A stretch of 64,000 bases of DNA from Desulfobacterales bacterium (GTDB taxonomy: Bacteria > Desulfobacterota > Desulfobacteria > Desulfobacterales > JALSRD01). Position 1 is the first letter of the stretch. Every line of letters begins with the position of its first letter. Location of the stretch: contig JALSRD010000019.1 in NCBI GenBank assembly GCA_026984935.1, forward strand, positions 2,264 to 66,263, written 5' to 3'. Under the pieces are notes generated by a model, which was not told the DNA's origin, did not search any database, and worked only from the letters and a program-made list of their open reading frames with translations. This document shows positions 3 to 25,559 of the stretch, one piece after another. The position numbers were made by a program, and so were the translations under genes.

Positions 3-389
3 ATTTACTCTGTTTTCAAAGACAATCTCGAAATACAAGGTTCCTCATTTGAGCAGTTCGAGGAGTACGCTCGCAACATCGAAAGGGAACACAACCGGAA
101 TCTGACCGCAGAGCGAAATGGCTTTCTACATGTCGACCTTGAATCCCTGCGCACATTGATTGTTCGTGTGCAGGGTCTGACCGCATCTTCGGAAGCACCA
201 TTCACTGACCCTTGCGGCGTCATTCTCAAAGCCAATTCGGGTACATACGTTCATAAGGGAGATATTCTCGCTGCTATACGCTGCGTGGACGCTTTTGCGG
301 ATGAGATGCTAACACGTGTTGCAGCGGCACTCCCTATAATGAACGAGCCGATTCCGGACTTACACTTTAGGGAGGTGCACCATGGGTAA
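3..389 (+). CDS. Pyrimidine/thymidine-nucleoside-phosphorylase-like protein, C-terminal part (5' end lies outside the window)
   Basis: Frame 3 is open from the window edge to TAA at 387-389. The tail GFLHVDLESLRTLIVRVQGLTASSEAPFTDPCGVILKANSGTYVHKGDILAAIR fits the PYNP C-terminal domain pattern (D..GV.L....G..V..GD.L..I). Its stop overlaps the next start (ATGGGTAA). Confidence 0.5.
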   Translation: MYSVFKDNLEIQGSSFEQFEEYARNIEREHNRNLTAERNGFLHVDLESLRTLIVRVQGLTASSEAPFTDPCGVILKANSGTYVHKGDILAAIRCVDAFADEMLTRVAAALPIMNEPIPDLHFREVHHG

Positions 390-4066: not shown

Positions 4067-4477
4067 GTGGTCGACAATTTGACACCTAAACAACGCAGCT
4101 ACTGTATGTCCCGAATCAAGGGAAAGGATACGGGAATCGAGACATCCGTCCGTTCAGAGCTTCACCGACGTGGCCTTCGGTTCCGCAAGCACGTCAAAGA
4201 CCTGCCCGGTAAACCGGATGTCGTTTTCAGCAAGGCCAAGGTGGTTGTGTTTATCGACGGTGATTTCTGGCACGGATATCGGTTCTCGTCGTGGGAGCAC
4301 AAGGTGTCGGATTTCTGGAAAGAAAAAATTACCAAAAATCGCGCGCGCGACAAAAAAAATCACAGAAAACTGAAAGAGATGGGCTGGACGGTGATCCGAC
4401 TTTGGCAGCATGACTTAAAGCGTGATTTCGATGGATGTATTGAAAAAATCGTGTCGGCAGTACGAGGAGCTTCTTAG
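4067..4477 (+). CDS. vsr: Very-short-patch-repair (Vsr) family endonuclease
   Basis: 136 aa with a GTG start 17 nt after the previous stop. Strong family pattern: RSYCMSRIKGKDTGIE, PGKPDVVF...VVFIDGDFWHG, KNRARD...L...GWTVIRLWQ. Confidence 0.9.
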   Translation: MVDNLTPKQRSYCMSRIKGKDTGIETSVRSELHRRGLRFRKHVKDLPGKPDVVFSKAKVVVFIDGDFWHGYRFSSWEHKVSDFWKEKITKNRARDKKNHRKLKEMGWTVIRLWQHDLKRDFDGCIEKIVSAVRGAS

Positions 4478-4682: not shown

Positions 4683-5321
4683 ATTCTCTGTTTGGGGAAA
4701 ATGTGGAGAAAAACATTTCCCGCAGCTGGACGCGGAGAACGGCACTTGGAAGCTCTCAAGGTGTTGTAAATAGAGGCGTTTTGATGTGTCGACGCTGGGG
4801 AGACTGAATTTCTGGAAGGCGGCATTCCCTCCACCATTTGAAAAAAGACGAACCGGTCCAATTGCCGCGCACGCCACGTCTGGTGGTTTATTTTTCTCGT
4901 GATGGTAATGTGTTACGGCATTCCTTGCTGCCGCCAATTGACCTTGCTGTCACCCGGTTTTCGCGAAATCCGGGTGAAAAGACGCTTCTCTTCGATAATT
5001 TTTCTCTGAATTTTCAACTTCCACTTTCGAACCTCGTCCGGTTCGAGACATCTTTTCCTGCAGTCTCTGCACTGTAAGCCGCTCGAAAACCCTGCCAATC
5101 CGTAAAAGAGTTCGTTGATGCCCACGGTAAAACGTACGTTCCGTACCTCGGAACCGTGGGACCCGGAACAATTCAAATGCCCGCTAAATCAAGCATATGA
5201 TGTATTTTGCAATCCCTGGTGCAGGTCCTCCAAAGAATCGAAGGTGCGCCATGATCGACGACGAACGGTTTGTAAAAAATCCGACATCTCAAAGAATACG
5301 AGGACCTCAACGCCCTCCTAG

Positions 5322-5720
5322 ATCGCCGGCCAACTGGATCTGGATCCCCGCACGATACGCAGGTGGATCGATGAGCTGGGCTTCCTGCCCTTCGACAAGG
5401 CCGGTGCCGACCTGCTCTTCCAGGTCATCAGCCCGCGTTATGAACAGGCCGCTTTGGTAATCACCTTAAACCGCGCCTACAAGGACTGTCCCGAGATCTT
5501 CAACAACAACAGCCTCCTTACGTCCGCTATCCTCGACCGCCTGCTGCACCATGCCGAAACGGTGCTCATCGAAGGTAGAAGCAACTGCATGAAAGACCAG
5601 GTCGAATCCTGCTCTCCCTATCTCCCGTTGCCGGAACCATCATCTCGGTTCCGGCAACTATCTTTACTCACAAAATCCAGATGCATTTTAGACAGGTGGT
5701 TTAGAGACATTTTCACGTAG
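5322..5720 (+). pseudogene. IS21-family IstB helper ATPase remnant (C-terminal third only)
   Basis: The frame is open from 5322. IDELGFLPFDKAGADLLFQVISPRYEQAALVITLNRAYKDCPEIF...SAILDRLLHHAETVLIEGRS matches the IstB Walker B to C-terminus pattern. The N-terminal two thirds and istA are absent. Confidence 0.7.
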
Positions 5721-6282
5721 CCGCTGACACATGACCGCACATACGTTATGAGCCAAAGTGGGTTTGCCTTTTTATTTGATCTGACAGAGCATACCCGCTT
5801 CTTTTCCTCACCGTCAGATAATTGACATTTATCAGTCCATAATTTATCGATATTCGCGTAACTAATTGTATTTTCGTTCTATTTACTCGTTTCGGCAACT
5901 GGCACTCATCTTGCTTTATTACATGCTGAGACAATTTTAAAAAAAAGCCTGCACCCTGATAAACTGACAAATTCCTAAGTATTCCGAATGGCATATTTGT
6001 CAGAGATGCCGGTAAATCTGAGCAATAAAATTTGGTTCTTCCAGTTTAAGCGTACTTATCGGCAGCCTATTGAAATCTAACAATTTTTAGGCCCTTGAAT
6101 TTGAAGGACACATCCCCCCTTTTGTGAGGACCCTTCAGATCCGGGCGAAAGGGCAATCACAAAAAGGGAGAATGTGTAAAAGGGTAAGTTGGCATTCTCC
6201 ACAAAGTCACGTTTGACATGGATATTTCATTCCCAAGTACGCAAATTCCGGATGAACCATAATTTTTAAGGAGAACCGTAAT

Positions 6283-9200
6283 ATGATTGATGGGAATTCG
6301 GTCTATTTTCATGAACCAGGCCAGCTAAGCCGGGGTGCTGTTCTGGATGTTGGATTAAAATGTTCGCACTCCTGCCGGTTTTGTTATTACAGCTTTATGG
6401 ACGGATCAGATAAGCAATTCAGGGGGATGAGAAAAGCTAAATTTCGGACTACAGAGGAGTTGAAAGAAATTCTTTCATTGTTAAAGAAAAAGGGGTTCAT
6501 TAATTTTGATGTTACTGGAGGTGAACCCACTTTACACACAGGAATTATAGAATTGATGCGTTATGCGCATCAAGACCTTGGACTAAACGGACGGATTATC
6601 ACTTTGGGCCAATTCTTGGTACGCAAACCAAAATACCTGATTAAAAAATTGTTTGATGCAGGCATTGTGAATTTCCTGTTTTCATTGCACGCGGTTGATG
6701 AAAAATCTTTTCAGAGAATAACTGGCGAGAGCTTTAACCGCCTACGTAAAGCAATGGATTTTTTGGACGAGAAAAGCTTTCAGTATTGCTCTAATACAAC
6801 AGTATTTGAATGGAACTACAAATCTCTTCCGGATATTGCCAGAGAAGTGCTATCACACGGAATTTATCTTCACAATTTTATTTTAATGAATGCCTACTAC
6901 CACTGGAATAAGGGCGGAAAGTCCTTCGGAGTTCAGGCAAAATATTCTCAAGTTTTGCCTTATCTTTCTGAAGCTGTATCCATTCTGGAAAGTCATGACA
7001 TTGCTGTAAATATCCGATATGCGCCCATGTGCGCGGTTAAAGGGCTTGAGAAAAATCTTGTTGGTGTTGTGGGCGTACGTTACGATCCATATGAGTGGAT
7101 GAATCGGGCTGGACACTTTGGCGGTCCACCTAGTGTTTGTGCTGATAAATATCCGATTAAACAAGGTGAAATCGAGAAAGCTTATGCTTTTATTCCACAA
7201 AAACTGAAAATGCCGAATGGTATCCGCGTTATCGGTATGCGGGGAAAACACTTTAAATATTTTAGTAGCAAGTGCCACAATTGTGCAGCAATAAATGTTT
7301 GTGATGGGGTGGATCCAAACTATTTGGCCAATTATGGAGATAATGAACTAATCCCTTATGAAACTGATCTCGGGGTAGGGCCTGTAGCTTCACCACGACT
7401 TGCCTATACACCCCCTTTTTTTGTTAAAACGAATCAATCTTCTGACATGAAGTCTATTTGCAAGGAAGCCTTCAACAAATGGCGTCAAAACCTAAACAAA
7501 AGTCATGACCACTGTTTTGCGAAGCCATCAATTGAGTTATGCCATAATAAACATCCCCTTATTTCTGTGATCATCCCCTGCTATAACCAAGCTCGTTATC
7601 TTGGAGAAGCAGTCACCAGTATTGTCGGCCAATCCTATGAAAACTGGGAAATTCTGATAGTCAATGATGGAAGTACAGATAATACCCATCCTGTTGCTGT
7701 TCAAATCATCAACCACTACCCGAATAAGCCCATTCGCCTGATTGACAAAAAAAATGGCGGTGTTGCCGACAGCCGTAATAGAGGAATCGAAACCGCTAAC
7801 GGCACGTGGATTCTTCCATTGGATGCTGATGACAAATTTAAACCTTCATTCTTGGAAAAGGCCGTTTCAGCGATCGAGGAGGATTCCAATCTAAACCTGA
7901 TATTTTCCAATGTGCGCCAGTTTGGCGCACAAAACGGAGCTTGGGTGCCGAACGAGTATTCTGAGTTGAAGATCATCGAAGAAAACTGTTTTCCCTATGC
8001 TTCTTTGTTCAAAAAATCCATCTGGCTCAATATAGGCGGTTATAGTCAGGTTCTTGGTAAAGTCATGCAATTGGAAGACTGGGATTTCTGGATTCGTGCC
8101 TCCAGGATGGGCATTAACGCTCACCGAATACCAGAGCAGCTCTTTCTGTACAGAGTCCACGACTCCAATATATACTATCAGGTTATCTTGCCCCGCATGG
8201 CCGTTGCCAAAGCGCTGACGGTTACCGCTAACGCCAACTTATATGAATTGAGGTATATTGAGCATTGCTGGCAAATAATCTCGAACTGTGACCAGGATAC
8301 TGAACAGAGAATCAGAAATACCTTATCAGCGTATCCTAAACACGCCCTTCCCTACTTTTGGTTAGGTTTGAAGTTTGAGGGATCCAAAAGCTATGAATCT
8401 GCCGTGACTTATTATCGAAAAGCGATTGAAAAGGGCGGAGAAAACGTGTGGCAGGCTTATCACCGACTCGGAATGATGCAGAAGCATTACCTTGGCTTTC
8501 CATCTAAAGCGATGGATGGCCCAGGTAATGTTTTACTTAGCGGCGAGGCCCAGGAAAATATCGCGAAAGCAAGGCGCCTGTACTACAGTTACAACCACTC
8601 TATGAGAGTTAAAAATACCTCACGAACCCTAAGGATTCTTTTTTATTATGAAGGCTTTCATAATAAAAATCGGCCATATGCCGGAACTGCTAAGGCGATA
8701 CAACAGATAGCAACTGCTCTTATAACAAGGACGGATTTTTCCGTTATAATTGTCGGTGACCATGTGCAGCGGACGGAAAAACTCGCCGATCGGTTGATAA
8801 TTCATCCAACACCTGACTCCAACTCCGTCGACTTCATAAAGAGATATGACATTGTCTTTTTCGCCACCCATACGGGCTGTTTTGCTACTGTCCCAAAGCC
8901 AGCTGAACAACGTTGGATTCTTCTGCAGCACTGCTGGGATTTTGATATACAGGCATGGAAGCGGATCGACGACTTTGATAAAATTATTTGTGTATCTAGA
9001 CCCCAGAAAGAGCGTTTTACCCGTATTAGAAGGATTGCACAAAAAATCGCAATAATACCCAATGGTGTCGATACCAACCATTTCAAAGAAAGTGTTATTA
9101 AAGGCAGAAAGCTCCACAGCATTATGTTTGCCGGAGCTATTGTCCCCCACAAGAATGTTCATATTCTAATTGAGGCCTTTCGCCTCCTCAAGCAGGACGT

Positions 9201-12200
9201 CACCGACGCAGAGCTTCATATCTATGGCAGCGCTTCCATGTGGAGCGGAGCTCCAGAAGATTACCAAGAAAGACTCCAAAAGGTAAAAGCCAACGGTGTG
9301 TTCTTTCACGGTGCTATCCCCAATGAAGAGATGCCAGACAATTATGCACGGCATAGCATACTTGTATTACCATCCTCTCTTGAAAGCTTCGGTTTGGTTA
9401 CTATAGAAGCGCAGGCATGTGGTTGTATTCCAGTCGTTTATCGCACTGGCGGTACAGAAGACACCCTATTAGATGGAAAAACAGGCTTTTTCTATACTGA
9501 CAATACCCCAAAATCTCTTAAGGCAACCATCAAGAAAGCGTTTAGGGCCATCGAAACCGACCCAGAAATGCGCCAGGCCGCGAGAAAATTTGTACTCAGT
9601 AATTTTGGTCTTGATTTAACTTCAAATAAACTCCTTCACCTCATTAAAAATCTCGGTATTCAAAACAACAAGACTCTGACCTGTATTGCAGTCCCAGGAA
9701 CCACTGATGAAAATCAAGTTATTAGATCCCAAAGTGCCCCTATTGATTGTAGCAAAGGAATGCAACGCATAGCAAAAAACACGTCCTATGCCGCCTGTCT
9801 CAGTAAAGCCGCCGAAGAATTTGAGGTAAAGGATACAGTCCGAAACACTGTTTCAGCTTTGGTCTGTAAAAGAGAAGCTGTGCTCCCTGTCCATTTTTTC
9901 ACAATCGTGTTAAACGGTCAGCCATTTATACGTCACCACATTGATGTATTTAAAAAACTTCCTTTTCAGTGGTATTGGCACATCGTCGAAGGTGTCGCCG
10001 CGCTGAAAAACGACACTGCATGGAGTTTACAATTCGGCGGTCGCATAGAAAACAAATTTCACCGCAACGGCTTGAGCAACGACGGCACCACAGAATACCT
10101 TGATTCGCTGGCCCAAGAGAATCCCGGACAAATCCACATTTATCGCAAACCCAAAGGCGTGTTCTGGGATGGCAAGCTCGAAATGGTGAACGCACCGCTG
10201 AAGAATATCACCGAGCCATGCCTGCTGTGGCAGATCGACGCTGATGAGCTCTGGACCGTCGAGCAAGTTACAACTGCGCGGCAGATGTTCATAGACAATC
10301 CAGGAAAAACCGCAGCTTACTATTTCTGCCACTACTTTGTAGGCCCCGACCTTATTACAACAACCCGTGACACATACGGCAATCATAGCGAATACGAGTG
10401 GCTGCGTACCTGGCGCTATCTTCCGGGAGACCACTGGGAATCTCATGAACCACCCCGGTTGCGCCGGCCCTCCGTTTCCGGTCCGATGAAGGACATCGCC
10501 GCCCTGCATCCTTTCAGTCACGCCGAAACGGAAAAACAGGGGCTTGTTTTCCAGCATTTCGCTTATGCCACCGAGGCGCAGGTTCGTTTCAAGGAAAATT
10601 ACTTTGGATATAAAGGTGCTGTACAAGGATGGAAAAGGCTGCAACGCCAAGAGCGCTTTCCTGTATTCTTGCGAAATTTTTTCCCCTGGGTGACAGATGA
10701 AACAAAAGTTGATCGAGCATCTGCTTTAAATCTGATTCCAATTGCAAAAAAAGATCCGTCTGGAAAATGGGAATTTAACCTTCCTACGCAACAAATTTCT
10801 AAAACCAGAATATTGGCTTCATCTATTCCTAAAAAGATTCTCTGGATTCGTACTGATTCAATCGGAGACACTATCTTATCGGCATCAATGTTACCGGAAA
10901 TTGTAAAAAATTATAAAGCCGTTTCAATTTTCGTGGTCTGTCAGGAACATGCATCCGAAATCTATGCAGCCTGCCCGTTTGTGGACAAAGTCATCGGCTT
11001 CGACCGTAAACGCATGTATTCCGATGAGTCCTACCAGCGGGAAATTCTCCAACGCCTGAACACCCTTTCGATCGATCTTGCCGTCAACTCGGTATTCTCC
11101 AGCGAACCGTTGACGCATTTTCTCACCCTCAAATCAGGTGCCCGTAAGACCATCGGTATACAAGGAGACTTGTGCAACATCGACCTGGAGAATCAGTCGC
11201 AATTTTTAAAAAACTACACCCAGGTCTGCACCATTGATTCAGCCAGCCATAGCGCTGAACTGGGACGTCACAGAGCCTTCCTCGCCTCTTTCGGCATTGA
11301 TGCCTCTTCCCTGGCCCCCGTTATATGGACAACTTCCGAAGACGAACATTTTGCCGATGATTTTTTCCGCAAAAATGAACTAGTTCCAGAAAAGACCATC
11401 GCCTTGTTTGCGGGCGCACAGTCCGGCATCAGATATTACTTTCAATACGGCAGGGCATTGTCGATGGCATTGGAAAATGATCCCGACTACTGTGTTCTGG
11501 CGTTGGGCTCGGATCATGAAAAAACCATCAATCAAAAAAACCTGGATGCAACAGGCCTGAGAACTTTCAACTTGTGTGGTCAAACGACCATTCGGCAGGC
11601 GGCTGCAATCATCAAGCGCTGCCGCCTGGCTGTCGGCGCCGAAACCGGGCTGGCGCACGCGACATGTGCCGTGGGAACTCCCAATGTCGTCCTCCTCGGG
11701 GGCGGGCACTTCGGGCGCTTCATGCCCTATTCTCCGCTCACCACCGTGGCATGCCTGCCGCTGTCGTGCTATGGCTGCAACTGGCAGTGCCGCTATGAAC
11801 GGCCTTATTGCATCAAGGATCTTTCACCGCATGTTCTAGCCGAAGCCGTAAAGGCGGCCTTTGCTTCAGCATCGAACAAAATGCGTATTGTAACCCAGGA
11901 CCGGTCGTCCTGGAAACCTGCAGCCGATATGCCGGAATGGCGTCTTCCCGATATTGCAAATGATGCGAAACGTTTTGAGATCATGTCCACGTTCGCATCC
12001 GCTGGCAAGAGTTTATCGGACGTGCTGAACGATGAGGGAGAAGCGCTGTTTGCCCGGGGAAAGGCAGAAAACGCGCGTTCTACTTTTGAAAAGGCGTCGG
12101 CGGCGGACCCGCAAGATGCCCGCGCACACAACAACCTCGGCGTCGTTTACCATCGGCTGGGAAGAGAAGAGCAAGCCCTTGCACACTACCAGAAAGCCGT

Positions 12201-15200
12201 CGCCTTGGCACCCAATGCAAAAACCTATCAGAAAAATCTGGCTGATTTCTACTGTGTGGCGCTGGGAGAAATCGAAAAGGCCATGCAACTGTATGTAAGC
12301 GTGCTTAGAAAAGATCCCCGGGATGCAGAAGCTTTGCGGGCCATGGGCCGAATTTGCCAGGCACTGGGCCGGAGCACGGACGCGCAAAGCTTCTTTCAGA
12401 GGGCACAACATGCTGATCTCCAGGATGAAAAGGCATCTGAAAACCCGGCACAACTTTCCTTACCCCCCCAAAGCCGTCGCTCCGAGTTTTCCATAGAGGC
12501 TACCGCCAATGGCCCAGAAAGCGATTATCACCACCAATACCTGGTATCCGCCATTGTCTCAACCTACAATGCCGAACGGTTCATCAGGGGCTGTATGGAG
12601 GATCTGGAGAGGCAGACGATTGCCGACCGTCTTGAAATCATCGTCGTCGACAGTGGTTCACAGGAAAATGAGGCCCAAATCGTCAGGGAGTTCCAGCAGC
12701 GTTTCCAAAACATAAAATACATCCGCACCGAACAGCGCGAATCTGTTTACGCGGCCTGGAACCGCGGCATTAAAGCAGCATCGGGCAAATACATCACCAA
12801 TGCCAACACCGATGACCGGCATCGCGGAGATGCCTTCGAAGTGATGAGCTCCATCCTGGAAACCCTGCCGGAAATCAGCCTGGTATATGCAGATGTCATC
12901 ATCACAAAGACCGCAAACGAAAGCTTCAAGCACTGCACCCCGGTGGGGTTCTACCGTTGGATGAACTTCAATCGCGATGACCTGCTCAACAAAGGTTGTT
13001 ACGTGGGCCCGCAACCCATGTGGCGCCGACAGGTGCATGACGAATACGGCTACTTCGACGAAACCTTCGTGACTTCCGGCGACTACGAATTCTGGCTGCG
13101 CATTTCCCAGACAGGCACCTTTCTGCACATCCCCGTTCTGCTGGGTCTCTACCTGAAATCCCCGCACAGCATCGAGCATGCCAACCGCGACCGCCAGGCC
13201 GAAGAAAATCGCCGCATCTTTAAAATGTACGCCGACGCCAAGTCCTCCGGTGAAGTCCTCGGCCGCATAAATCCTCCGGACAAGCTTCCGGTTGACGGCT
13301 CCGCGGGGCCAAAACCGGCTGAAAATCTCTACAAGGATGTACAGGGACTGATCCGCAAGGGGGAATACGACCCGGCTGTTGAAAAACTTAAGCTTATGAC
13401 AGCAGAATTTCCGCATTTTGCTCCGCCATACAACGATCTGGGGATACTTTATCACAGCCGGGGGGATCTGGAAACGGCCCTGTCATCCTACCAGAAAGCT
13501 GTTGAACTCGCGCCGGAAAATGCCACTTTTCAGAAAAACCTGGCCGATTTCTACTGCGTGGCGCTGGGTAAAATCGAAGCCGCCATGGAAATCTATGTGC
13601 GTGTGCTGCAACGGGATCCCCTTGACATCGAAGCCCTGCTGGCCATGGGTTATATCTGCCGCAGGTTTGAGCGCTTCGAGGATGCCAAAAGCTTTTACGC
13701 GCGCGTGCTTGAAATCGATGCGGATAATGAGACCGCCCGCAGGTTCATGGGGCTTGCTGAACCGTCCAGGGCCGAAACCGATGATACTCCGCTTTCCGCT
13801 GAAACGGCATATGAACAACTGCTGGAAGACATGCAGCACGATCCGCTGGATGCCGGCATTGCCAAGATCAGTGCTTTTTTAGCGGCCTTTCCGGACCTGG
13901 CACACGCCCACAGCGACATCGGCGCTTTGTACCAGCGTGCCGGGGCTTCCGACAAGGCTGAAAAACACCTGCAAAAAGCCGCCCTGCTCGCCAAAGACAA
14001 TCCGCAGTTTCAGAAAAACCTGGCGGATTTCTACCTTGTCGAACGCGATCGGAAAGAGCCGGCCCTGGAAATTTATCGCCGGCTTTTGGATAAAGACCCT
14101 GGCAACAAACAACTTCTCCTGCTGGCCGGGCATGTCTGCGTCGCACTGAAGCGCCTGTCGGATGCCGCCGTTTTTTACCGCCGCTTGCTTGCCGAAGACC
14201 CTGGTAATACGGACGCCCGCACGAACCTGGAAGCCATTGAAGGAATTGAAGAAGCGCATGACAAAAAAAGTCCGCCTCCGGGAAAAACGCCGCGGGGCAA
14301 GGTGTTGCAGGAGCCGGGCGATGGGAGCACAGCCCAGCTTGATGCGGCACCGGCGGAAGGACCTGACGACCCGCAGGTTTCGATCTTGATTTCGGCTTCA
14401 GGCCCTGTGAACCGGCTGCGCAGCCGCGTGCAGGCCATCGAACGGCATACCGACACGCCGTATGAACTGATCTTTCTGGATAGTGGCGTCACCAAAGGAA
14501 CGGATCAATGGCTGCAACAGTTCTTGGACCAGAACGATCACGGGCACCGCATCCGATGCGGGCACGCAACCAACGCCGCAACTGCAGTTAATGCCGGTAT
14601 CGCGGCGAGTCACAGTAAAATGATTCTGCGGTTATCCAATGACGTTGAAGTCACCCCGGGATGGCTGGCTTCGATGATAACGCACCTGGAACGTAATGCC
14701 GATACCGGCATCGTCGGCGCCATGTCCAATGTCGCCGCCGAACGCCAGAAAGCACCCTTGCCATGGAGCAAAGGTGAAGACACATTGGCAAAGTTTGCAG
14801 CGGCTTACCGGCAGCGGAACCGCCATCGCCGCATACCCGCCAATACTATAGACGGGTTCTGTATGCTTTTTACCCGCCAACTTTTCGAAAACATCGGCCC
14901 CTTCGACGAAGAACTGGGCCAAGGCGGCTATGATGGCGAGGACTTCTGCCTGCGGGCCACGCTGGCCGGCTGTCAGAATCTGATCGCCGGCGATGTCTAT
15001 CTGCACCGCCACCTCAAAAAGAAGCCTCCACGGGACAAAAAGGCCTTTACCTTAAAATGGAGCGGTGCTGACGTCAAAACACCGGCAGGCAAAAAGTATC
15101 TTGCCCTGTTGACAGAACGCAAAGCCCGCCGGGCCTGGCAGGCCGAACGTGTCGACGAAGCCGGAGAACTTTTTCTGCAGGCCATCGGTCTGCAACCGGA

Positions 15201-17127
15201 AAGTTGCAAAAGCTACCACAGGCTGGCTGAAATGCTGATTCAGACCAAACAGTACGAAAACGCCCTTGAAGTGCTCAACGAACTTCCAGAGGGCGAGCCC
15301 GACGTACGGGAAATAGTACTCAAAGCTTGCTGCCAGGAGGGGCTTGGACGGCTGGAAGAAGCCCAACAGCTGGTGGACCGGGCATTGGAGATCAATCCTT
15401 TGTTTGCGCCGGCACTGAACCGCAAGGGCCTGTTGGCTTACCAGCATTCAGACCGCCACAACGCCGGCGGATGGTTTCAGCGCGCCCTAGCGGCTGACCC
15501 GGGATTCGGAGAAGCTTACACCAACCTTGGTGCGCTCAAATGGGAAGCCGGCGAAAAAGATGCCGCCCTGGAATTATACGAACGTGCCTTTATCCTGGAA
15601 CCCGCTATTGCGGATATTGCAGCCAACTATCACGCGGCCATGTCCGACCTGAACCAGTACGCCCGCGGCGTTCCCATTTTGCGGGAAGCTGTCAGCGCCT
15701 ACCCGTTCAGCAAAAAAATCCGTTACATGCTGATCGACTGCCTCATCCGTTTACAGCAATATGCAGCGGCCATGGAAACCATCGAAAGCGCGATCGCCGA
15801 TTTTGGTATTGAAGACGGCATCCTGGCATCGGCGCTCAAAGTCCGGGAAATACTCGGCCCGCTCGAAATCGAAAGCCATGATCCAAATCATCCCACAGTT
15901 TCGCTGTGCATGATCACAAAAAACGAACAGGAACACCTTGCCCGTTGTCTGCGCAGCGCAAAACCCGTGGTCGACGAAATCATCGTGACCGACACCGGCT
16001 CCAATGATCGCAGTATCGATATCGCACGCGCTTTCGGCGCAAAGGTCAACGCATTCGCATGGACGGAAGATTTTTCAGCAGCACGGAATGATGCGCTTTC
16101 ACAGGCTACCGGCGGCGTCATTTTCGTCATGGATGCGGATGAAGTGATATCTCCCACCGACTATCCTGAATTCAGACGGATAGCGCGGCAATCCGGCACA
16201 AAGCGCTGCGCATACATCGTCAACACGCGCAACTATACTATGGACAACAACCTGGTGTCGTGGGTGGCCAATGATGGCTGTTATGGGGCGGCCGAGGCTG
16301 GTACCGGCTGGACTCCCAGCGCCAAGATACGCATCTTCCCCAATGACCGCGGGGTACGTTTTGACTTTCCGGTACACGAAATGGTGGAACCCTCTTTGGA
16401 AAAGGCCGGTATTCCGATGCTTGCCTGTGATATCCAGATCCACCACTACGGAAAACTGAACTCCCAGAAAAGCCGGACCAAGGGGGAAGCTTATTATGAA
16501 ATCGGGCGTAAAAAACTTGCGGAGACAAAAGACGCTCCGGTGGCTTTAAGGGAGCTCGCCACTCAGGCTGAAATCCTCGGGAAACATGACGAATCGATCG
16601 AATTGTGGAAACGCTTTATTGCGCTTTTACCCAATGAACCCAAAGCCTACATCAACATGGGAATCACATACTGCAGCCTGGGCCAATTTGACAACGTGCT
16701 GGCAACTGCTGAAAAAGTGCTGCAGCTGCGGCCGGAATCAAAAGAGGGGCATTACAATTATGCCCTGGCCAAGCTGCACCTGGGCTGTCCGGAGCAGGCA
16801 CGCGAGACCCTGAAGGAACTTTGTCATCGGATGCCGGAATATCTGCCGGCACGGTTTCTGATGGCGGCAACCCACTGCGTCATGGGGAAAAAAGACACGG
16901 GCATGGCCATGCTGGCCGAACTCTCCCGGACGTCCATCGGGCCTGGTCTTGCCATCCGCTGCCACGAACTGGCAAAGGCGTTCGCCGCCAATAACCGGTT
17001 CGATTATGCCCGGTCCCTTCTCGATGCCGCCATCGACAGCAAAAACAGCAACAAAAATATTCTAAACCTGTATGCCGATTGCCTCGAACACATCGATTCC
17101 GACAAAAAAACGGGAACCTACGAATAG
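6283..17127 (+). CDS. Giant 3614-aa fusion protein: radical SAM (SPASM-like) domain + seven glycosyltransferase domains (GT2 x4, GT4, GT-A-like, GT9) interleaved with TPR blocks
   Basis: A single uninterrupted ORF with AGGAGA 8 nt upstream of the ATG.
- Radical SAM: CSHSCRFC (nt 6361-6384), GGEPTLH, CHNCAAINVC (7273-7302)
- GT2 #1: ISVIIPCYN (7561) with DADD (7822-7833)
- GT4: starts ~8629, with EAQACGCIPVV..GG..D...DG.TGFF (9406)
- GT-A-like: starts ~9889, with QIDADE (10231-10248)
- GT9: KKILWIRTDSIGD (10831) and GAETGLAHA..VGTPNVVLLGG
- GT2 #2: IVSTYNAERF (12538) with NTDD
- GT2 #3: VSILISA (14374)
- GT2 #4: SLCMITKNEQEHL (15895) with MDADE (16129-16143)
- TPR blocks lie between and after the domains. 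Confidence 0.85.
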   Translation: MIDGNSVYFHEPGQLSRGAVLDVGLKCSHSCRFCYYSFMDGSDKQFRGMRKAKFRTTEELKEILSLLKKKGFINFDVTGGEPTLHTGIIELMRYAHQDLGLNGRIITLGQFLVRKPKYLIKKLFDAGIVNFLFSLHAVDEKSFQRITGESFNRLRKAMDFLDEKSFQYCSNTTVFEWNYKSLPDIAREVLSHGIYLHNFILMNAYYHWNKGGKSFGVQAKYSQVLPYLSEAVSILESHDIAVNIRYAPMCAVKGLEKNLVGVVGVRYDPYEWMNRAGHFGGPPSVCADKYPIKQGEIEKAYAFIPQKLKMPNGIRVIGMRGKHFKYFSSKCHNCAAINVCDGVDPNYLANYGDNELIPYETDLGVGPVASPRLAYTPPFFVKTNQSSDMKSICKEAFNKWRQNLNKSHDHCFAKPSIELCHNKHPLISVIIPCYNQARYLGEAVTSIVGQSYENWEILIVNDGSTDNTHPVAVQIINHYPNKPIRLIDKKNGGVADSRNRGIETANGTWILPLDADDKFKPSFLEKAVSAIEEDSNLNLIFSNVRQFGAQNGAWVPNEYSELKIIEENCFPYASLFKKSIWLNIGGYSQVLGKVMQLEDWDFWIRASRMGINAHRIPEQLFLYRVHDSNIYYQVILPRMAVAKALTVTANANLYELRYIEHCWQIISNCDQDTEQRIRNTLSAYPKHALPYFWLGLKFEGSKSYESAVTYYRKAIEKGGENVWQAYHRLGMMQKHYLGFPSKAMDGPGNVLLSGEAQENIAKARRLYYSYNHSMRVKNTSRTLRILFYYEGFHNKNRPYAGTAKAIQQIATALITRTDFSVIIVGDHVQRTEKLADRLIIHPTPDSNSVDFIKRYDIVFFATHTGCFATVPKPAEQRWILLQHCWDFDIQAWKRIDDFDKIICVSRPQKERFTRIRRIAQKIAIIPNGVDTNHFKESVIKGRKLHSIMFAGAIVPHKNVHILIEAFRLLKQDVTDAELHIYGSASMWSGAPEDYQERLQKVKANGVFFHGAIPNEEMPDNYARHSILVLPSSLESFGLVTIEAQACGCIPVVYRTGGTEDTLLDGKTGFFYTDNTPKSLKATIKKAFRAIETDPEMRQAARKFVLSNFGLDLTSNKLLHLIKNLGIQNNKTLTCIAVPGTTDENQVIRSQSAPIDCSKGMQRIAKNTSYAACLSKAAEEFEVKDTVRNTVSALVCKREAVLPVHFFTIVLNGQPFIRHHIDVFKKLPFQWYWHIVEGVAALKNDTAWSLQFGGRIENKFHRNGLSNDGTTEYLDSLAQENPGQIHIYRKPKGVFWDGKLEMVNAPLKNITEPCLLWQIDADELWTVEQVTTARQMFIDNPGKTAAYYFCHYFVGPDLITTTRDTYGNHSEYEWLRTWRYLPGDHWESHEPPRLRRPSVSGPMKDIAALHPFSHAETEKQGLVFQHFAYATEAQVRFKENYFGYKGAVQGWKRLQRQERFPVFLRNFFPWVTDETKVDRASALNLIPIAKKDPSGKWEFNLPTQQISKTRILASSIPKKILWIRTDSIGDTILSASMLPEIVKNYKAVSIFVVCQEHASEIYAACPFVDKVIGFDRKRMYSDESYQREILQRLNTLSIDLAVNSVFSSEPLTHFLTLKSGARKTIGIQGDLCNIDLENQSQFLKNYTQVCTIDSASHSAELGRHRAFLASFGIDASSLAPVIWTTSEDEHFADDFFRKNELVPEKTIALFAGAQSGIRYYFQYGRALSMALENDPDYCVLALGSDHEKTINQKNLDATGLRTFNLCGQTTIRQAAAIIKRCRLAVGAETGLAHATCAVGTPNVVLLGGGHFGRFMPYSPLTTVACLPLSCYGCNWQCRYERPYCIKDLSPHVLAEAVKAAFASASNKMRIVTQDRSSWKPAADMPEWRLPDIANDAKRFEIMSTFASAGKSLSDVLNDEGEALFARGKAENARSTFEKASAADPQDARAHNNLGVVYHRLGREEQALAHYQKAVALAPNAKTYQKNLADFYCVALGEIEKAMQLYVSVLRKDPRDAEALRAMGRICQALGRSTDAQSFFQRAQHADLQDEKASENPAQLSLPPQSRRSEFSIEATANGPESDYHHQYLVSAIVSTYNAERFIRGCMEDLERQTIADRLEIIVVDSGSQENEAQIVREFQQRFQNIKYIRTEQRESVYAAWNRGIKAASGKYITNANTDDRHRGDAFEVMSSILETLPEISLVYADVIITKTANESFKHCTPVGFYRWMNFNRDDLLNKGCYVGPQPMWRRQVHDEYGYFDETFVTSGDYEFWLRISQTGTFLHIPVLLGLYLKSPHSIEHANRDRQAEENRRIFKMYADAKSSGEVLGRINPPDKLPVDGSAGPKPAENLYKDVQGLIRKGEYDPAVEKLKLMTAEFPHFAPPYNDLGILYHSRGDLETALSSYQKAVELAPENATFQKNLADFYCVALGKIEAAMEIYVRVLQRDPLDIEALLAMGYICRRFERFEDAKSFYARVLEIDADNETARRFMGLAEPSRAETDDTPLSAETAYEQLLEDMQHDPLDAGIAKISAFLAAFPDLAHAHSDIGALYQRAGASDKAEKHLQKAALLAKDNPQFQKNLADFYLVERDRKEPALEIYRRLLDKDPGNKQLLLLAGHVCVALKRLSDAAVFYRRLLAEDPGNTDARTNLEAIEGIEEAHDKKSPPPGKTPRGKVLQEPGDGSTAQLDAAPAEGPDDPQVSILISASGPVNRLRSRVQAIERHTDTPYELIFLDSGVTKGTDQWLQQFLDQNDHGHRIRCGHATNAATAVNAGIAASHSKMILRLSNDVEVTPGWLASMITHLERNADTGIVGAMSNVAAERQKAPLPWSKGEDTLAKFAAAYRQRNRHRRIPANTIDGFCMLFTRQLFENIGPFDEELGQGGYDGEDFCLRATLAGCQNLIAGDVYLHRHLKKKPPRDKKAFTLKWSGADVKTPAGKKYLALLTERKARRAWQAERVDEAGELFLQAIGLQPESCKSYHRLAEMLIQTKQYENALEVLNELPEGEPDVREIVLKACCQEGLGRLEEAQQLVDRALEINPLFAPALNRKGLLAYQHSDRHNAGGWFQRALAADPGFGEAYTNLGALKWEAGEKDAALELYERAFILEPAIADIAANYHAAMSDLNQYARGVPILREAVSAYPFSKKIRYMLIDCLIRLQQYAAAMETIESAIADFGIEDGILASALKVREILGPLEIESHDPNHPTVSLCMITKNEQEHLARCLRSAKPVVDEIIVTDTGSNDRSIDIARAFGAKVNAFAWTEDFSAARNDALSQATGGVIFVMDADEVISPTDYPEFRRIARQSGTKRCAYIVNTRNYTMDNNLVSWVANDGCYGAAEAGTGWTPSAKIRIFPNDRGVRFDFPVHEMVEPSLEKAGIPMLACDIQIHHYGKLNSQKSRTKGEAYYEIGRKKLAETKDAPVALRELATQAEILGKHDESIELWKRFIALLPNEPKAYINMGITYCSLGQFDNVLATAEKVLQLRPESKEGHYNYALAKLHLGCPEQARETLKELCHRMPEYLPARFLMAATHCVMGKKDTGMAMLAELSRTSIGPGLAIRCHELAKAFAANNRFDYARSLLDAAIDSKNSNKNILNLYADCLEHIDSDKKTGTYE

Positions 17128-17135: not shown

Positions 17136-18860
17136 ATGAATGCCCAGGATCTTTACGGGGAGAGCCTCCAGACAGCGTACGGCAATAGAGATGCGGCCCA
17201 GACTGCTTTCCGTATGGGCCTCCAGCATATTGTCCGCGGGGAAAATCGCGAAGCGGCCACCGCTTTCAAACAGGCGGTTTCGCTCCAGCCGGATTTTGCC
17301 GCCGCCTATTACAACCTCGGTCGCGTATTGAGGGAGCTGGGTGACGACAGCGAGGCCATCGCAGCTTATCGAAAGGCATCTGAATGGGATCCGGAAGATC
17401 CGGATATTTTCTACAATTTGGGAAACGCGCTATTTGCCGCTGGAAAATTGGACACCGCCATAAAATGCTACCAAAGAGCCCTTGGGCTGAATCCACGTTT
17501 TGTCAAGGCCCGCAACAACCTTGCCGAAGCTTTAAAGAAATGCGGCCGAATTGACGCCGCCATCGAACAGTATAATGCCGTGCTGCATGGCAGTTCCCCC
17601 TCAGCGGAAACACTGTGCAGAATGGGGGACCTCTTCCGGAAACGGCGAAAATACGACCAAGCCTCACACTGGTACCAAAAAGCCCTGCAACGGTTCCCGG
17701 ATTGTGCCGAAGCCTTCAACGGTCTTGGGAATGTGCTGCGCGACCAGAACCGTGTGCAGGAGGCTAAAGTATGCTACGAACAGGCCATCCGGGCCGCGCC
17801 GACATGTGCCCGCGCATACAGCAACCTGGCCAAAACCTGCCAGGAAACCGGAGATCTGGGAAAAGCCCTGCATTACTACGATCAGGCGGTCCAGATCGAG
17901 ACGGATGAAGCCGATATCCGCTTTAACCGTGCCACAGCATACCTGATGAGCGGTAATTTTGCCGAAGGCTGGAAGGAATACACTTACCGTTTTAAACGCC
18001 GCCAATGGCAAAGCGTCTATCCCCGCCGTTTCGATCAGCCGCTTTGGGACGGATCACCCTATGCTGGTAAGAAGCTCTACGTTCACGACGAACAGGGTCT
18101 GGGTGATACCCTGCAGTTCGTGCGTTACCTACCTCTTGCCGCTGCGTTGGGCGGTGAACTCATCTTCGAAACCCGCCCGTCATTGTTCGAACTTTTCAAG
18201 GGCATTGCCGGCGCGACACGCGTGGTGTACCGCACCGCCAGCACTCAACCCAGCGACCTTGATTTCGACTACTACGTGCCGTTGCTGAATTTGCCGTGGG
18301 TATTTAACACTACCCTTGAAACGGTGCCGAACCATGTTCCATACCTTTTCGCCAACAGTCGCAAAAAAGCGCTCTGGCGACAACGGCTGAATGACTCCCG
18401 CACTTTTCGTGTCGGAATCGTATGGGGCGGGAGCGCCACAGACGAAAAACGCTCCTGCCGTCTTGAGGATTTCCTCATCCTGCAAAAGACCAACGCCGTG
18501 CGGCTCTATGGGCTGCAAAAAGGACCCGCCGCGCTGCAGACGCTGGAAATTCCCGGCTGTGAAATTCCAAATTTTGGCCCTGAATTTACCGACTTTTCGG
18601 ATACCGCCGCAGCCATCGACTGCCTGGACCTGGTCATATCGGTCGACACGGCCGTCGCCCATCTGGCCGGCGCCATGGGAAAACCGGTATGGACACTCTT
18701 GCCATATGCGCCGGATTGGCGCTGGATGCAAAAGCGCAGCGACAGCCCCTGGTATCCCACCATGCGCCTCTTCCGCCAGGAAACGCCCGGCAACTGGCAA
18801 ACCGTCATGCAGCAGGTGGCAACGGCCCTTAAACGAGCTATGGCGCAACCCGCCGCCTGA
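17136..18860 (+). CDS. TPR-repeat protein with C-terminal GT9-like (heptosyltransferase-fold) glycosyltransferase domain
   Basis: The ORF track starts at 17079, overlapping the giant ORF. The internal ATG at 17136 (MNAQDLYG) lies 9 nt after the upstream stop. N-terminal TPRs are present (AAYYNLGRVLRELGD.., DIFYNLGNALFAAGK..). The C-terminus carries GLGDTLQFVRYLPL and DTAVAHLAGAMGKPVWTLL. Confidence 0.8.
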   Translation: MNAQDLYGESLQTAYGNRDAAQTAFRMGLQHIVRGENREAATAFKQAVSLQPDFAAAYYNLGRVLRELGDDSEAIAAYRKASEWDPEDPDIFYNLGNALFAAGKLDTAIKCYQRALGLNPRFVKARNNLAEALKKCGRIDAAIEQYNAVLHGSSPSAETLCRMGDLFRKRRKYDQASHWYQKALQRFPDCAEAFNGLGNVLRDQNRVQEAKVCYEQAIRAAPTCARAYSNLAKTCQETGDLGKALHYYDQAVQIETDEADIRFNRATAYLMSGNFAEGWKEYTYRFKRRQWQSVYPRRFDQPLWDGSPYAGKKLYVHDEQGLGDTLQFVRYLPLAAALGGELIFETRPSLFELFKGIAGATRVVYRTASTQPSDLDFDYYVPLLNLPWVFNTTLETVPNHVPYLFANSRKKALWRQRLNDSRTFRVGIVWGGSATDEKRSCRLEDFLILQKTNAVRLYGLQKGPAALQTLEIPGCEIPNFGPEFTDFSDTAAAIDCLDLVISVDTAVAHLAGAMGKPVWTLLPYAPDWRWMQKRSDSPWYPTMRLFRQETPGNWQTVMQQVATALKRAMAQPAA

Positions 18861-18955: not shown

Positions 18956-19333
18956 TCATCCCGTCGATCCCCTCAGGCCCGCCGCGATGTTGCGGTTGAT
19001 GTCGATGATGATGGAAAGCTTTTCCGGAGAAGGAAAGGCCATGGTTTCAAAGATGCGTTTGTCGATAAAAGCGCTCAGCCGCAGCAAGTCCCGTTTCAGG
19101 GAAACGGGAAGGGGGTTTTCCTTTTTTGAAAGTTCCGCCTGGAAAATACTCCATATGCGCTGGGTATATTTCAGGGCTTCGTCCAGTCTTTCATCCCGAT
19201 CTTTGGCCTGCCAATTGTCCTGGCAGTTTTTCAATTTCAGGGCCGCCTTGCTCAACACCCGGGCCTCGGTCTCCCGTCCGGACATGGTTTTGCGGCCGAC
19301 ATTTTCATAGACCTGCAATGCATTACTGTACAC
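18956..19333 (-). CDS. flaF: Flagellar biosynthesis regulator FlaF
   Basis: 125 aa. The pattern Y......RE.E...L..AA..L......W......L.EAL...Q.IW......L....N.LP..L...L..LS.FI.........IIIDINRNIAAGL matches the FlaF family. Confidence 0.8.
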   Translation of the reverse strand: MYSNALQVYENVGRKTMSGRETEARVLSKAALKLKNCQDNWQAKDRDERLDEALKYTQRIWSIFQAELSKKENPLPVSLKRDLLRLSAFIDKRIFETMAFPSPEKLSIIIDINRNIAAGLRGSTG

Positions 19334-19712
19334 AGCTGAGCGCCTCCTCTTCGTATGCCATCAGTTTCTTTGCGACTTTAAGTGCCGGATAGAATCTGTC
19401 ACTGAGAACAAACTCGCTGATCTGATCGATAAAGGCAACGGTTGTGGGTGCGGCCTTAACCAGTTCCTGGGCGACACGCCAGTAGCTGTCATAATAAGTT
19501 GCCTGGTTTTGTTTGTCGACGTACATCAACTGAATGACAAAATAGATCAAACGCGCGGGAGAATCGGCATCCTTTTCTCCCAGGATGTCTTGCTCTCTCA
19601 GAATGGGTACCCGGTTTTCAATGCAAAACTGGCTGCGGGAATCGCCGTTGGTAATCACTGCACCGCCGATGATCATACGTTCGTGGGGCTTTAAGGTAAT
19701 TTTCAGCGCCAT
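19323..19712 (-). CDS. flbT: Flagellin synthesis repressor FlbT
   Basis: Start taken at MALKITLKPHERMIIGGAVITNGD, with GAGGAG upstream. ..PILREQDIL....A.SPARLIYF.IQLMY is typical of FlbT. It overlaps flaF by 11 nt. Confidence 0.8.
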   Translation of the reverse strand: MALKITLKPHERMIIGGAVITNGDSRSQFCIENRVPILREQDILGEKDADSPARLIYFVIQLMYVDKQNQATYYDSYWRVAQELVKAAPTTVAFIDQISEFVLSDRFYPALKVAKKLMAYEEEALSCVQ

Positions 19713-19737: not shown

Positions 19738-20421
19738 CTACAGATTGGGTGGATTGAAGACCCCGGTCGCATCGGCCAGCAGCCCCATGCGCCGGGAGTC
19801 TAGAATTTTTCCCGCTTCATCGAGCCTTTCCACCGCCGCTTCGAGAGCCCGGTCGTCAGCCTGCTCTCCGAGCGCCGGAATGTTCAGCCCTTCGGGCCCC
19901 GGATGAACCGGCTGACGCTGAATGGCCTTGGCGAACCCGTTGTGCTCGGCCACCAGTGCTGAACCGTCTGCTGAGCCCTCTGAAGGACCGCCCATGATCC
20001 TGGCGGCATCGCTGTCGTCAGGCGGCATGGTCAATTCATCGATCAACCGGCGAAACGCCGCAAAACTTTTCAACAACTTTACCCGGGCATCGCTGCCGGG
20101 CGGATAAGGGGGAAAATTCTTCAGGTGCACCTGTATCTGCTTTTTCATGTGCGCAAGCTGCTCGCCGATCTTCTGCATGGACCGGTCCGCCACGCGGATA
20201 CTGCGGGCAACGTCATTCAGGCCGGAGGCCGCTGTCTGTTGCCGGCTGAAGGAAAATTTGCTGCGATCGATTTTCACCCATCCACTGGCGGATCCATCAG
20301 CAACCCGCGTGGCAGCGGTTTTATGTGAAGTTGTTGTATGCGAGCCGGCAGACACGGTTGAAACCCGCGGATGCACAGATGGCATGGCGGCATTCGCAAT
20401 TGTTAGATCCGGTGGTACCAT
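19738..20421 (-). CDS. Hypothetical protein in the flagellin operon (no recognisable family)
   Basis: 227-aa ORF with an AGGAGG RBS 7 nt upstream of the ATG. It sits between flagellin and flbT on the same strand. Composition is not antisense-like. Confidence 0.6.
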   Translation of the reverse strand: MVPPDLTIANAAMPSVHPRVSTVSAGSHTTTSHKTAATRVADGSASGWVKIDRSKFSFSRQQTAASGLNDVARSIRVADRSMQKIGEQLAHMKKQIQVHLKNFPPYPPGSDARVKLLKSFAAFRRLIDELTMPPDDSDAARIMGGPSEGSADGSALVAEHNGFAKAIQRQPVHPGPEGLNIPALGEQADDRALEAAVERLDEAGKILDSRRMGLLADATGVFNPPNL

Positions 20422-25543: not shown

Positions 25544-25559
25544 TGGTACGAAAGCTGCA
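25544..25559 (+). promoter_or_regulatory. Sigma-54-type promoter upstream of motA (stator set 1)
   Basis: TGGTACGAAAGCTGCA against the consensus TGGCACG-N4-TTGCW. The GG and GC dinucleotides are correctly spaced. It lies ~75 nt upstream of the ATG, with an AT-rich tract upstream and a sigma-54 activator gene adjacent. Confidence 0.55.

Follow-up and report, generated by a model that had tools for sequence, protein, structure and literature searches.

How does one uninterrupted open reading frame (ORF) of 10.8 kb come to hold a radical S-adenosylmethionine (SAM) domain, seven glycosyltransferase (GT) modules and four blocks of tetratricopeptide repeats (TPRs), and on what would its product act? 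The question is raised by the ORF at 6283–17127 of a 64,000-nt stretch of Desulfobacterales DNA (GenBank assembly GCA_026984935.1, contig JALSRD010000019.1, positions 2,264–66,263, forward strand), hereafter called the window. An earlier note on this DNA had listed these modules and proposed a scaffolded assembly line for an oligosaccharide on a protein or lipid target. The inventory is correct: Pfam backs the radical SAM domain and six GTs, and the seventh is supported by its fold. We propose, with a probability of about 65%, that the giant protein is a cytoplasmic TPR-guided enzyme that builds a tailored flagellin O-glycan before export, the TPR blocks binding flagellin. Flagellin is the likely target because its synteny with the giant gene is conserved and because the last GT module is homologous to the flagellin glycosyltransferase GmaR. 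The target suggested earlier, a protein or a lipid, is thereby narrowed to flagellin as the likely one.

A single gene for a soluble giant protein

The gene analysed is:

6283–17127, + strand: giant ORF, a 10.8-kb gene for a soluble protein of 3614 residues and 407 kDa

This ORF represents one real gene, and its protein product is soluble and cytoplasmic. The ORF list and the translation show an ATG start and one stop codon, the terminal one, in a window that contains no N. The start is well defined, as AAGGAG stands 9 nt before the ATG and the reading frame is open from 6256 only. With about three stops per 64 random codons, the chance of 3614 open codons is (61/64)^3614, or about e^-173; the open run is therefore not random.

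An exact-protein look-up retrieved a near-identical protein, P0001, encoded on the European Nucleotide Archive MEGAHIT contig ERZ27262647 k141_494738 (L001; 33,292 bp), which has 99.92% DNA identity to window positions 4827–27126. Within the giant ORF there are seven substitutions between the two sequences, of which five are non-synonymous (K423R, A1974T, L2349V, H2378Y and S2706L), and neither an indel nor a stop codon. Since the variants are substitutions only, the frame is intact in two assemblies of slightly different strains, and the continuity over 3614 codons claimed earlier is confirmed.

The G+C content at third codon positions (GC3) is 0.43 over the first ~1560 codons of the gene and 0.62 thereafter, with a maximum-likelihood change point at codon 1562 (~10966; log-likelihood ratio 61). 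A chimeric assembly is an unlikely source of this shift, in view of the L001 substitutions, which lie on both sides of it (7550 and 12202–15297), and of local alignment to the homologous giant P0002, which is collinear with residues 412–2316 across it. Repeat-driven misassembly was also ruled out, since the longest internal DNA repeat in the ORF measures 63 nt at 68–71% identity.

The protein has a pI of 7.2. A hydropathy scan of the full chain found neither a transmembrane helix nor a signal peptide, the highest 19-residue Kyte–Doolittle mean being 1.42. A membrane-bound synthase was ruled out by the lack of a transmembrane segment.

Domain organization

The modules follow one another along the + strand in this order:

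6283–7482, +: radical SAM domain (residues 1–400; PF04055 core at residues 26–187, E = 6.6e-18)
7555–8178, +: GT2 module 1 (residues 425–632; PF00535, E = 5.9e-33; DAD at 514–516)
8710–9657, +: GT4 module (residues ~810–1125; Pfam extent ~852–1102; PF13439 + PF00534, E = 4.7e-33)
9874–10782, +: divergent GT-A module (residues 1198–1500; DAD-E at 1319–1322; AlphaFold2 model, no Pfam model)
10834–11862, +: GT9 module, heptosyltransferase-like, GT-B (residues ~1518–1860; Pfam extent ~1663–1833; PF01075)
12010–12462, +: TPR block 1 (residues ~1910–2060; domain scans)
12547–13152, +: GT2 module 2 (residues ~2089–2290; PF00535, E = 9.6e-26)
13330–14232, +: TPR block 2 (residues ~2350–2650; domain scans)
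14371–15006, +: GT2 module 3 (residues ~2697–2908; PF00535, E = 2e-17)
15130–15792, +: TPR block 3 (residues ~2950–3170; domain scans)
15877–16467, +: GT2 module 4, GmaR/SunS-type (residues 3199–3395; Pfam PF00535; DADE at 3284–3287)
16540–17082, +: TPR block 4 (residues ~3420–3600; domain scans)

The radical SAM domain scores 65.9 bits with PF04055 (cutoff 29.5) and carries the superfamily motif as C27-x3-C31-x2-C34. Further cysteines are C250, C286 and C331-x2-C334-x5-C340, so that both clusters read by the earlier note, CxxxCxxC and the C-terminal CxxCx5C, are present. Four homologous cassettes (P0011–P0014) retain all eight cysteines, a pattern that fits an auxiliary Fe–S cluster. The SPASM family PF13186 had no match in the Pfam scan of the giant, and the nearest relatives in the PDB sequence search, MoaA and the sugar-nucleoside decarboxylase BlsE, are generic only. 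Together with GT2 module 1, the domain forms a conserved cassette (6283–8340; residues 8–685) that recurs inside P0011–P0014 at 48–51% identity.

The four GT2 modules pass the PF00535 threshold of 23.3 with 114.6, 91.1, 64.1 and 68.3 bits. As claimed earlier, each has a DxD-type motif: DAD at 514 and 3284 in modules 1 and 4, and TDD and ND-type motifs, read from the sequence, in modules 2 and 3. The best PDB relative of module 2 is the chondroitin polymerase K4CP (E = 6e-24); module 3 had no match in the PDB sequence search. Both GT-B halves of the GT4 module are recognized (PF13439, 31.3 bits; PF00534, 114.6 bits), and the expected acidic pair lies in ESFGLVTIE at 1034–1042 (E1034-x7-E1042). 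The GT9 module scores 59.9 bits with PF01075 (cutoff 22) and contains ETGLAH at residue 1790. It stays below the cutoffs of the NCBIfam equivalogs for lipopolysaccharide (LPS) heptosyltransferases (TIGR02195, 54.7 vs 134.6; TIGR02193, 31.8 vs 185.3), and it is therefore a member of the family but not a WaaC/WaaF orthologue. Domain searches thus uphold the GT2, GT4 and GT9 assignments made earlier, six of the seven GT modules, as well as the four TPR blocks.

The seventh, called QIDADE after its motif, lies in a region (residues 1141–1570) without any Pfam match and without a PDB sequence match, whether a single sequence or a profile was used. An AlphaFold2 model of the module built from 38 sequences reached a mean predicted local distance difference test score (pLDDT) of 96.6 and a predicted TM-score of 0.92. 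Foldseek matches of this model in the PDB were headed mainly by GT-A enzymes (SunS, CgT, K4CP, TarS, ArnC and GtrB), with a few structurally related nucleotidyltransferases among them (best E = 1.7e-6, probability 1.00, TM-score ~0.44). The D-x-D-E motif (D122, D124 and E125 in the 38-sequence alignment) is invariant, as are 66 positions in all. The model thus indicates with high confidence a GT-A fold glycosyltransferase domain with a DxD motif, as the earlier note had suspected, although sequence searches were blank; it is a divergent one, because the best E-value is significant but the TM-scores reach only ~0.44. With this fold, all seven GT modules are supported.

The core of this module (residues 1198–1500) belongs to a large unnamed family with more than 700 homologues at 50–62% identity, distributed across phyla. 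Its members occur alone (~300 residues, annotated as hypothetical proteins), joined to a GT9 domain (642–710 residues, e.g. in Azospirillum), joined to a GT4 domain (~680 residues) or within mega-GT chains, and the majority of the best-scoring members sit in proteins of 900–4171 residues. A profile search of 1.84 billion representative proteins returned 801 clusters (representatives at 50% identity) at E ≤ 1e-10. A family of this kind, which lacks a Pfam model, deserves its own definition.

The last glycosyltransferase module resembles GmaR

GT2 module 4 is a clear homologue, by sequence, of the GT domain of Listeria GmaR. The match to the GmaR chain 22ao_A (E = 3.3e-26) covers the entire GT domain, with residues 4–181 of the 204-residue chain aligned; about half of the first 100 residues are identical, and DADE and HHYG are shared. 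The next-best relative is SunS (E = 8e-12), and the NCBIfam SunS family score is far below its cutoff (56 vs 350).

In Listeria monocytogenes, GmaR is both a flagellin beta-O-N-acetylglucosamine (GlcNAc) transferase and the anti-repressor of MogR. Its N-terminal ~180 residues transfer GlcNAc to flagellin, and the TPR domain that comes next was proposed by the authors to recognise flagellin (PMC9638930). The same order is found here, TPR block 4 following directly after module 4, and both genes stand at a flagellin locus. Unlike the giant, GmaR is a single-GT protein of 637 residues (length from PMC9638930) with a C-terminal anti-repressor domain, whereas module 4 is the last of seven GT modules in 3614 residues. 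For this C-terminal part, comprising the linker and the anti-repressor, we found no counterpart; a search with residues 3190–3614 matched the GmaR GT-domain chain only, and the module 4–TPR unit ends ~200 residues short of the GmaR length.

A flagellin locus downstream of the giant gene

Downstream of the giant gene the window continues as follows:

17136–18860, +: gene for a 574-residue protein with N-terminal TPRs and a C-terminal GT9-like GT-B domain (FlmG-like architecture), starting 8 nt after the stop codon of the giant
18956–19333, −: FlaF, flagellin secretion chaperone/regulator (PF07309 on the L001 gene call)
19323–19712, −: FlbT, flagellin translation regulator (PF07378 on the L001 gene call)
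19738–20421, −: conserved gene, function unknown, located between FlbT and flagellin (synteny; no family match)
20515–21321, −: flagellin of 268 residues, the proposed acceptor (PF00669/PF00700)

The giant and the 574-residue protein gene form an apparent operon, and the four genes that follow, flagellin included, are convergent with this pair and lie within 3.4 kb. The 574-residue protein has TPRs at residues ~20–280 and a partial PF01075 match at 504–542, the layout of the FlmG class (~600 residues). The GT domain of this protein is part of a very large family with the annotations GT9 or TPR-glycosyltransferase, whose named members come from Desulfobacterales, Desulfosarcina, Planctomycetota and Nitrospirota; it had no PDB sequence match. 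Homologous TPR-GT genes adjoin flagellin at the locus L013.

FlaF is 55–58% identical to its counterparts at the related loci L007 and L009, and the flagellin, which has 22 Ser/Thr within residues 100–200, is 55% identical to the flagellins of L007. The gene at 19738–20421 had no Pfam or NCBIfam match. It recurs at the same place in L007 (26351–26944) and L009 (21125–21850), encodes 197–241 residues with 27–32% identity to the window copy, and may specify an uncharacterised flagellin-associated factor. Beyond flagellin lie a two-component pair (a PAS histidine kinase and a sigma-54 response regulator) and MotAB.

Homologous giants and the fusion of separate units

Similar giants are common in databases. 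A full-length search found at least 56 proteins of 2000–5707 residues with the same domain vocabulary in metagenomes, with source labels that include Thermodesulfovibrionales (P0002), Verrucomicrobia, Phycisphaerae and Microcoleus. A scan of GTDB representative genomes found no close relative of the giant, only weak matches to module 4 (in a Methanosarcinales metagenome-assembled genome and others). Together with the many large proteins that carry the unnamed GT-A family, these homologues show that "highly unusual", as the earlier note called the architecture, was an overstatement. By sequence comparison, the present giant belongs to a class of very large glycosyltransferases that is widespread but has hardly been studied, its members being built from shuffled cassettes of common modules:

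Residues 8–685: radical SAM + GT2 module 1, shared with P0011–P0014, 48–51% identity
Residues 412–1138: GT2 module 1 + GT4, shared with P0002, 41% identity
Residues 1186–1902: GT-A + GT9, a contiguous cassette, shared with P0002 and P0003, 52–55% identity
Residues 2699–3579: GT2 module 3–TPR–GT2 module 4–TPR, shared with P0004 and P0005, 37–41% identity

The genomic context was examined for ten homologous giants, and in seven of them (P0003, P0004, P0005, P0010, P0014, P0015 and P0020), as in the window itself, flagellin or flagellar genes lie within 10 kb. Three, P0003, P0004 and P0005, are all directly upstream of FlaF. At the P0003 locus (L007), FlaF is followed by FlbT, the conserved unknown gene and flagellin; at the P0005 locus by FlbT and the unknown gene, the contig ending at a 67-residue ORF, itself unsearched, where the window and L007 have flagellin; the P0004 contig ends just past FlaF. 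P0014 is followed by separate TPR, GT, GT2-TPR and GT4 genes and two flagellins, and P0010 (5707 residues) by GT and TPR genes, flagellin and FliS. P0015 lies between FlgK/FlgL and FliD, FlhB and FliPQR, and P0020 (4430 residues, Verrucomicrobia; locus L015) precedes FlgL, FlgK, FlgN, FlgI, FlgH, FlgA and FlgG. For P0002 and P0011 the contig breaks off at the giant or shortly past it; these contigs carry genes of amino-sugar or nonulosonic-acid pathways.

The earlier note had supposed that such modules are normally separate genes, and several loci bear this out. At the P0003 locus the equivalent of residues 2669–3584 makes up the C-terminal two-thirds of a separate 1458-residue gene product (38% identity), and one TPR block is a 363-residue gene product of its own. 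Stand-alone GT2-TPR genes (497–547 residues) beside flagellin at the P0014 and P0010 loci match specifically module 4 with TPR block 4 at 27–32% identity, and TPR-GT genes at these two loci match the 574-residue protein at 34–35%; the GT-A module, too, occurs as lone proteins. Since its equivalents are separate genes in relatives, the giant is a fusion of such units.

The flagellin and FlaF of the window and of L007 are 55–58% identical, and the two giants share one cassette at that level; the sugar genes are thus far more variable than their flanks. Such a pattern is typical of flagellar glycosylation islands. Upstream of the giants at L015 (1–9881), L007 (1–9976) and L010 (1–10004) we noted separate radical SAM/SPASM and B12-radical SAM genes as well as genes for NeuB, CMP-sugar transferases, DegT aminotransferases, formyltransferases and transketolase-like proteins. 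Judging from these families, they make up elaborate pathways for the tailoring of nonulosonic acids or amino sugars, which the present window lacks. Radical SAM genes thus stand separately in the sugar-pathway part of other giant loci.

Comparison with known flagellin glycosyltransferases

The known flagellin glycosyltransferases (FlmG, Maf and GmaR) have a single GT each and attach one type of sugar. FlmG of Caulobacter and Brevundimonas is a cytoplasmic pseudaminyl/legionaminyl transferase of 596 residues with a TPR domain at the N-terminus and a GT-B domain at the C-terminus; by itself the TPR domain binds every flagellin, and the donor is determined by the GT-B domain (PMC7591256; bioRxiv 10.1101/2022.03.25.485807). 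The 574-residue protein has the same domain order and a similar size, and its gene has flaF and flbT close by, an arrangement matched by the flaFG region of Caulobacter (PMC7591256). By analogy, the same logic may apply to it, its TPRs binding flagellin and its GT domain setting the donor. It differs from FlmG in that its GT domain scores as GT9-like and that the window shows no pathway to pseudaminic or legionaminic acid: neither NeuB nor a CMP-transferase was among the window ORFs scanned, whereas both are present at L010 and L015. The giant itself differs further from FlmG, with seven GT modules of other families.

In Maf-1, the C-terminal TPR was shown experimentally to be the flagellin-binding element (bioRxiv 10.1101/2023.12.03.569772). 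Enzymes of the Maf-1 type, MAF_flag10/DUF115 followed by a C-terminal TPR, resemble the giant in the sequence of catalytic domain and flagellin-binding TPR and in a cytoplasmic modification before export (bioRxiv 10.1101/2023.12.03.569772; PMC4065374). Unlike them, the giant has no MAF_flag10 domain (PF01973), which was absent from all Pfam scans of the protein. The glycocin S-glycosyltransferases SunS and ThuS offer another comparison: SunS is a GT2 enzyme that glycosylates a peptide directly, and it is nearest to the Pfam-less module in structure and close to module 4 in sequence. The difference is that neither a glycocin precursor nor the SunS C-terminal peptide-binding domain was identified here, and the NCBIfam SunS score of module 4 is low.

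Proposed function and mechanism

There is direct support for the ORF, for its domains and catalytic motifs, for the cytoplasmic nature of its product, for the conservation of synteny with flagellin, for homology to GmaR and for the split or fused state of its units in relatives. What we infer is that flagellin is the acceptor, that the TPRs bind it, the sequence in which the modules act, the identity of the sugars and the chemistry of the radical SAM domain. In the proposed mechanism, the TPR blocks would bind newly made flagellin in the cytoplasm before its FlaF-assisted export. The first sugar would be placed on Ser/Thr by the GmaR-like GT2-TPR module 4, by the co-transcribed TPR + GT9-like protein of FlmG architecture, or by both. 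The remaining modules (the other three GT2, the GT4, the novel GT-A and the GT9) would extend or branch the O-glycan from nucleotide sugars, and the N-terminal radical SAM domain, with its putative auxiliary Fe–S cluster site, would tailor a sugar or a nucleotide-sugar precursor. Cassettes that stand apart as genes at related flagellin loci were probably joined in-frame to give the present gene.

The earlier note had regarded the TPRs as a scaffold. By analogy, they are more likely acceptor-binding elements than inert scaffolds, because the TPRs of FlmG and Maf-1 have been shown to bind the acceptor and those of GmaR have been proposed to do so (PMC7591256; bioRxiv 10.1101/2023.12.03.569772; PMC9638930). 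A stricter version of the proposal is a true glycan assembly line comparable to nonribosomal peptide synthetases and polyketide synthases, in which TPR-held flagellin would meet seven GTs in a set sequence, perhaps collinear with the chain, while the radical SAM domain tailors on-line, so that one defined heptasaccharide results. We consider this version unlikely. Were it to hold, the shuffling of cassettes among relatives of 2000–5700 residues would represent a modular and rapid diversification of flagellar glycans, for example against flagellotropic phages or predators.

Several points weigh against flagellin O-glycan assembly as the function of the giant. The proposal is a sequence inference throughout, and most of the GT modules are as similar to polysaccharide GTs as they are to protein GTs. 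The likeness of the 574-residue protein to FlmG comes from architecture and context and not from sequence comparison; no Caulobacter protein was among the 120 listed relatives of its GT domain. The radical SAM domain comes near the threshold of no NCBIfam subfamily (24.9 vs a cutoff of 170 for the twitch subfamily NF033640), and its structure prediction, made from a 5-sequence alignment, has a pLDDT of 40.5, too poor for a judgement of the fold. No nucleotide-sugar biosynthesis genes lie beside the giant in the window, their usual upstream place being occupied by a low-GC defence gene, a Vsr gene and an IS21 remnant. The Microcoleus giant P0026 has no flagellar context, so that the mega-GT architecture is not exclusive to flagella. 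A candidate sigma-54 promoter upstream of the gene is a lead only:

5900–5914, +: candidate sigma-54 promoter TGGCACTCATCTTGC, an exact TGGCAC-N5-TTGC, 369 nt upstream of the start codon of the giant

No other exact -24/-12 consensus occurs in the window, where 0.33 matches are expected by chance and at least one occurs in 26% of shuffles; the match is not significant. Two sigma-54 activators are encoded in the window, at 23429–24844 and 61527–62882.

Alternative explanations

The giant could instead be a cytoplasmic enzyme that polymerises or assembles a polysaccharide or glycolipid (a capsule, exopolysaccharide, O-antigen-like or flagellar sheath or matrix glycan), resembling the multi-module enzymes of ABC-transporter-dependent pathways such as WbdA, K4CP and the TPR capsule polymerases, with the TPRs serving in oligomerisation or partner binding. 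We consider this unlikely. Several GT modules in one soluble chain are indeed common to these enzymes and the giant, GT2 module 2 is nearest to K4CP, GT2 module 1, GT4 and GT9 have sub-threshold matches to exopolysaccharide, teichuronic-acid and LPS glycosyltransferases, and the cyanobacterial giant P0026 is non-flagellar. However, K4CP, WbdA-type enzymes and TPR capsule polymerases have two or three modules, act on acceptors linked to lipids and have exporter genes encoded alongside. The present chain combines seven GTs with a radical SAM domain, and the ORFs annotated within 10 kb of the giant include defence, insertion-sequence and flagellar genes only, with no ABC, Wzx or Wzy exporter, no polyprenyl-phosphate priming transferase and no chain-length regulator; the nearest ABC ATPase of the window is at 44081–46075. 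Nor were export genes seen at the related loci examined. The terminal module is of the GmaR/SunS type, that is, directed to a protein or peptide, and the flagellin synteny of 7 of 10 relatives also points away from a polysaccharide. Precedents for the combination exist all the same, TPR-containing capsule polymerases and multi-module O-antigen enzymes having been described (PMC5974469; PMC11231755).

Acceptors other than flagellin (hook or cap proteins, pilins, S-layer proteins or several cytoplasmic targets), each TPR block selecting a different protein, appear improbable. The most conserved neighbours of the closest relatives are FlaF, FlbT and flagellin, and the characterised homologue GmaR acts on flagellin. 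That there are four distinct TPR blocks would nevertheless suit this explanation, as would the OGT/SPINDLY-type TPRs among the PDB matches, the relatives that adjoin FlgK, FlgL or FliD and not the filament flagellin, and the cyanobacterial TPR-GT enzymes that modify pilin (PMC9306852).

That the single ORF is an artefact, either a low-GC/high-GC chimera or ordinary genes whose intervening stops are masked by sequencing errors, is highly improbable: the metagenomic origin of the sequence and the sharp GC3 shift would fit it, but the strain-variant assembly has the same junction and an open frame with substitutions on both sides, P0002 is collinear across the shift, every module keeps its catalytic motif, long repeats are lacking and dozens of independent giants have the same build.

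Novelty and significance

The principle of a TPR and a GT domain acting together on flagellin in the cytoplasm is already known. Searches of open-access papers and bioRxiv turned up work on FlmG, Maf and GmaR, but no account of multi-GT giants encoded at flagellar loci and none of radical SAM–GT fusions in flagellin glycosylation. Three features are undescribed: the scale (a single chain with seven GTs and a radical SAM domain), the way in which relatives shuffle cassettes, and the GT-A family that has no name. To our knowledge, the assembly of longer flagellin O-glycans is understood for few bacteria. The window and at least seven related loci suggest that many uncultivated anaerobes and aquatic bacteria fuse a whole glycan toolkit into one TPR-guided polypeptide; taxonomic labels place such giants in Thermodesulfovibrionales and Verrucomicrobia, and relatives of the downstream gene in Desulfobacterales and Planctomycetota. 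If this is correct, the locus would provide a compact, clonable system in which to study how cytoplasmic protein O-glycosylation recognises its acceptor and in what order its enzymes act, and a natural case of domain shuffling as a route to glycan diversity. It would also give a first functional context to the GT-A family without a Pfam model (about 800 clusters) and to the unassigned radical SAM–GT2 cassette.

Upstream flank and other genes of the window

The low-GC part of the giant gene, which encodes the radical SAM, GT2, GT4 and GT-A modules, resembles in composition the foreign upstream flank, while neighbouring host genes have a GC3 of 0.59–0.78. This resemblance suggests that the N-terminal 43% of the gene was recently acquired and fused in-frame.

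The flank begins with a gene at 382–4050 (+) for a 1222-residue protein that matches over its full length the PADLOC model CARF6--CARF_STK_AAA (1473 bits) and also a Pfam ORC-CDC6-like family. With a GC3 of 0.38, compared with ~0.7 for host genes, it looks like a horizontally acquired defence or CRISPR-ancillary gene, no cas genes being in view. Next to it is a gene for a Vsr-type nicking endonuclease (4067–4477, +). A frame-broken remnant of an IS21 IstB helper ATPase follows at 5197–5720 (+), with the PF01695 C-terminus at 5454–5717 and a strong hairpin at 5627–5658. The contig L001 ends just upstream of this remnant, at window position 4826/4827, which suggests a repeat or a strain-variable junction.

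Other motility genes of the window include a second MotAB pair, a FliY-like protein and a methyl-accepting chemotaxis protein. The stretches 25427–27260 (+), 29124–30731 (−), 36258–37843 (−) and 53290–58635 (−) hold the two MotA/MotB pairs, the FliY-like protein and a Tol-Pal cluster. The FliY-like protein has 534 residues, with CheX/CheC domains fused to FliN_C, and the Tol-Pal cluster comprises TolQ-like, TonB_2/TolA-like, TolB and YbgF-like TPR proteins.

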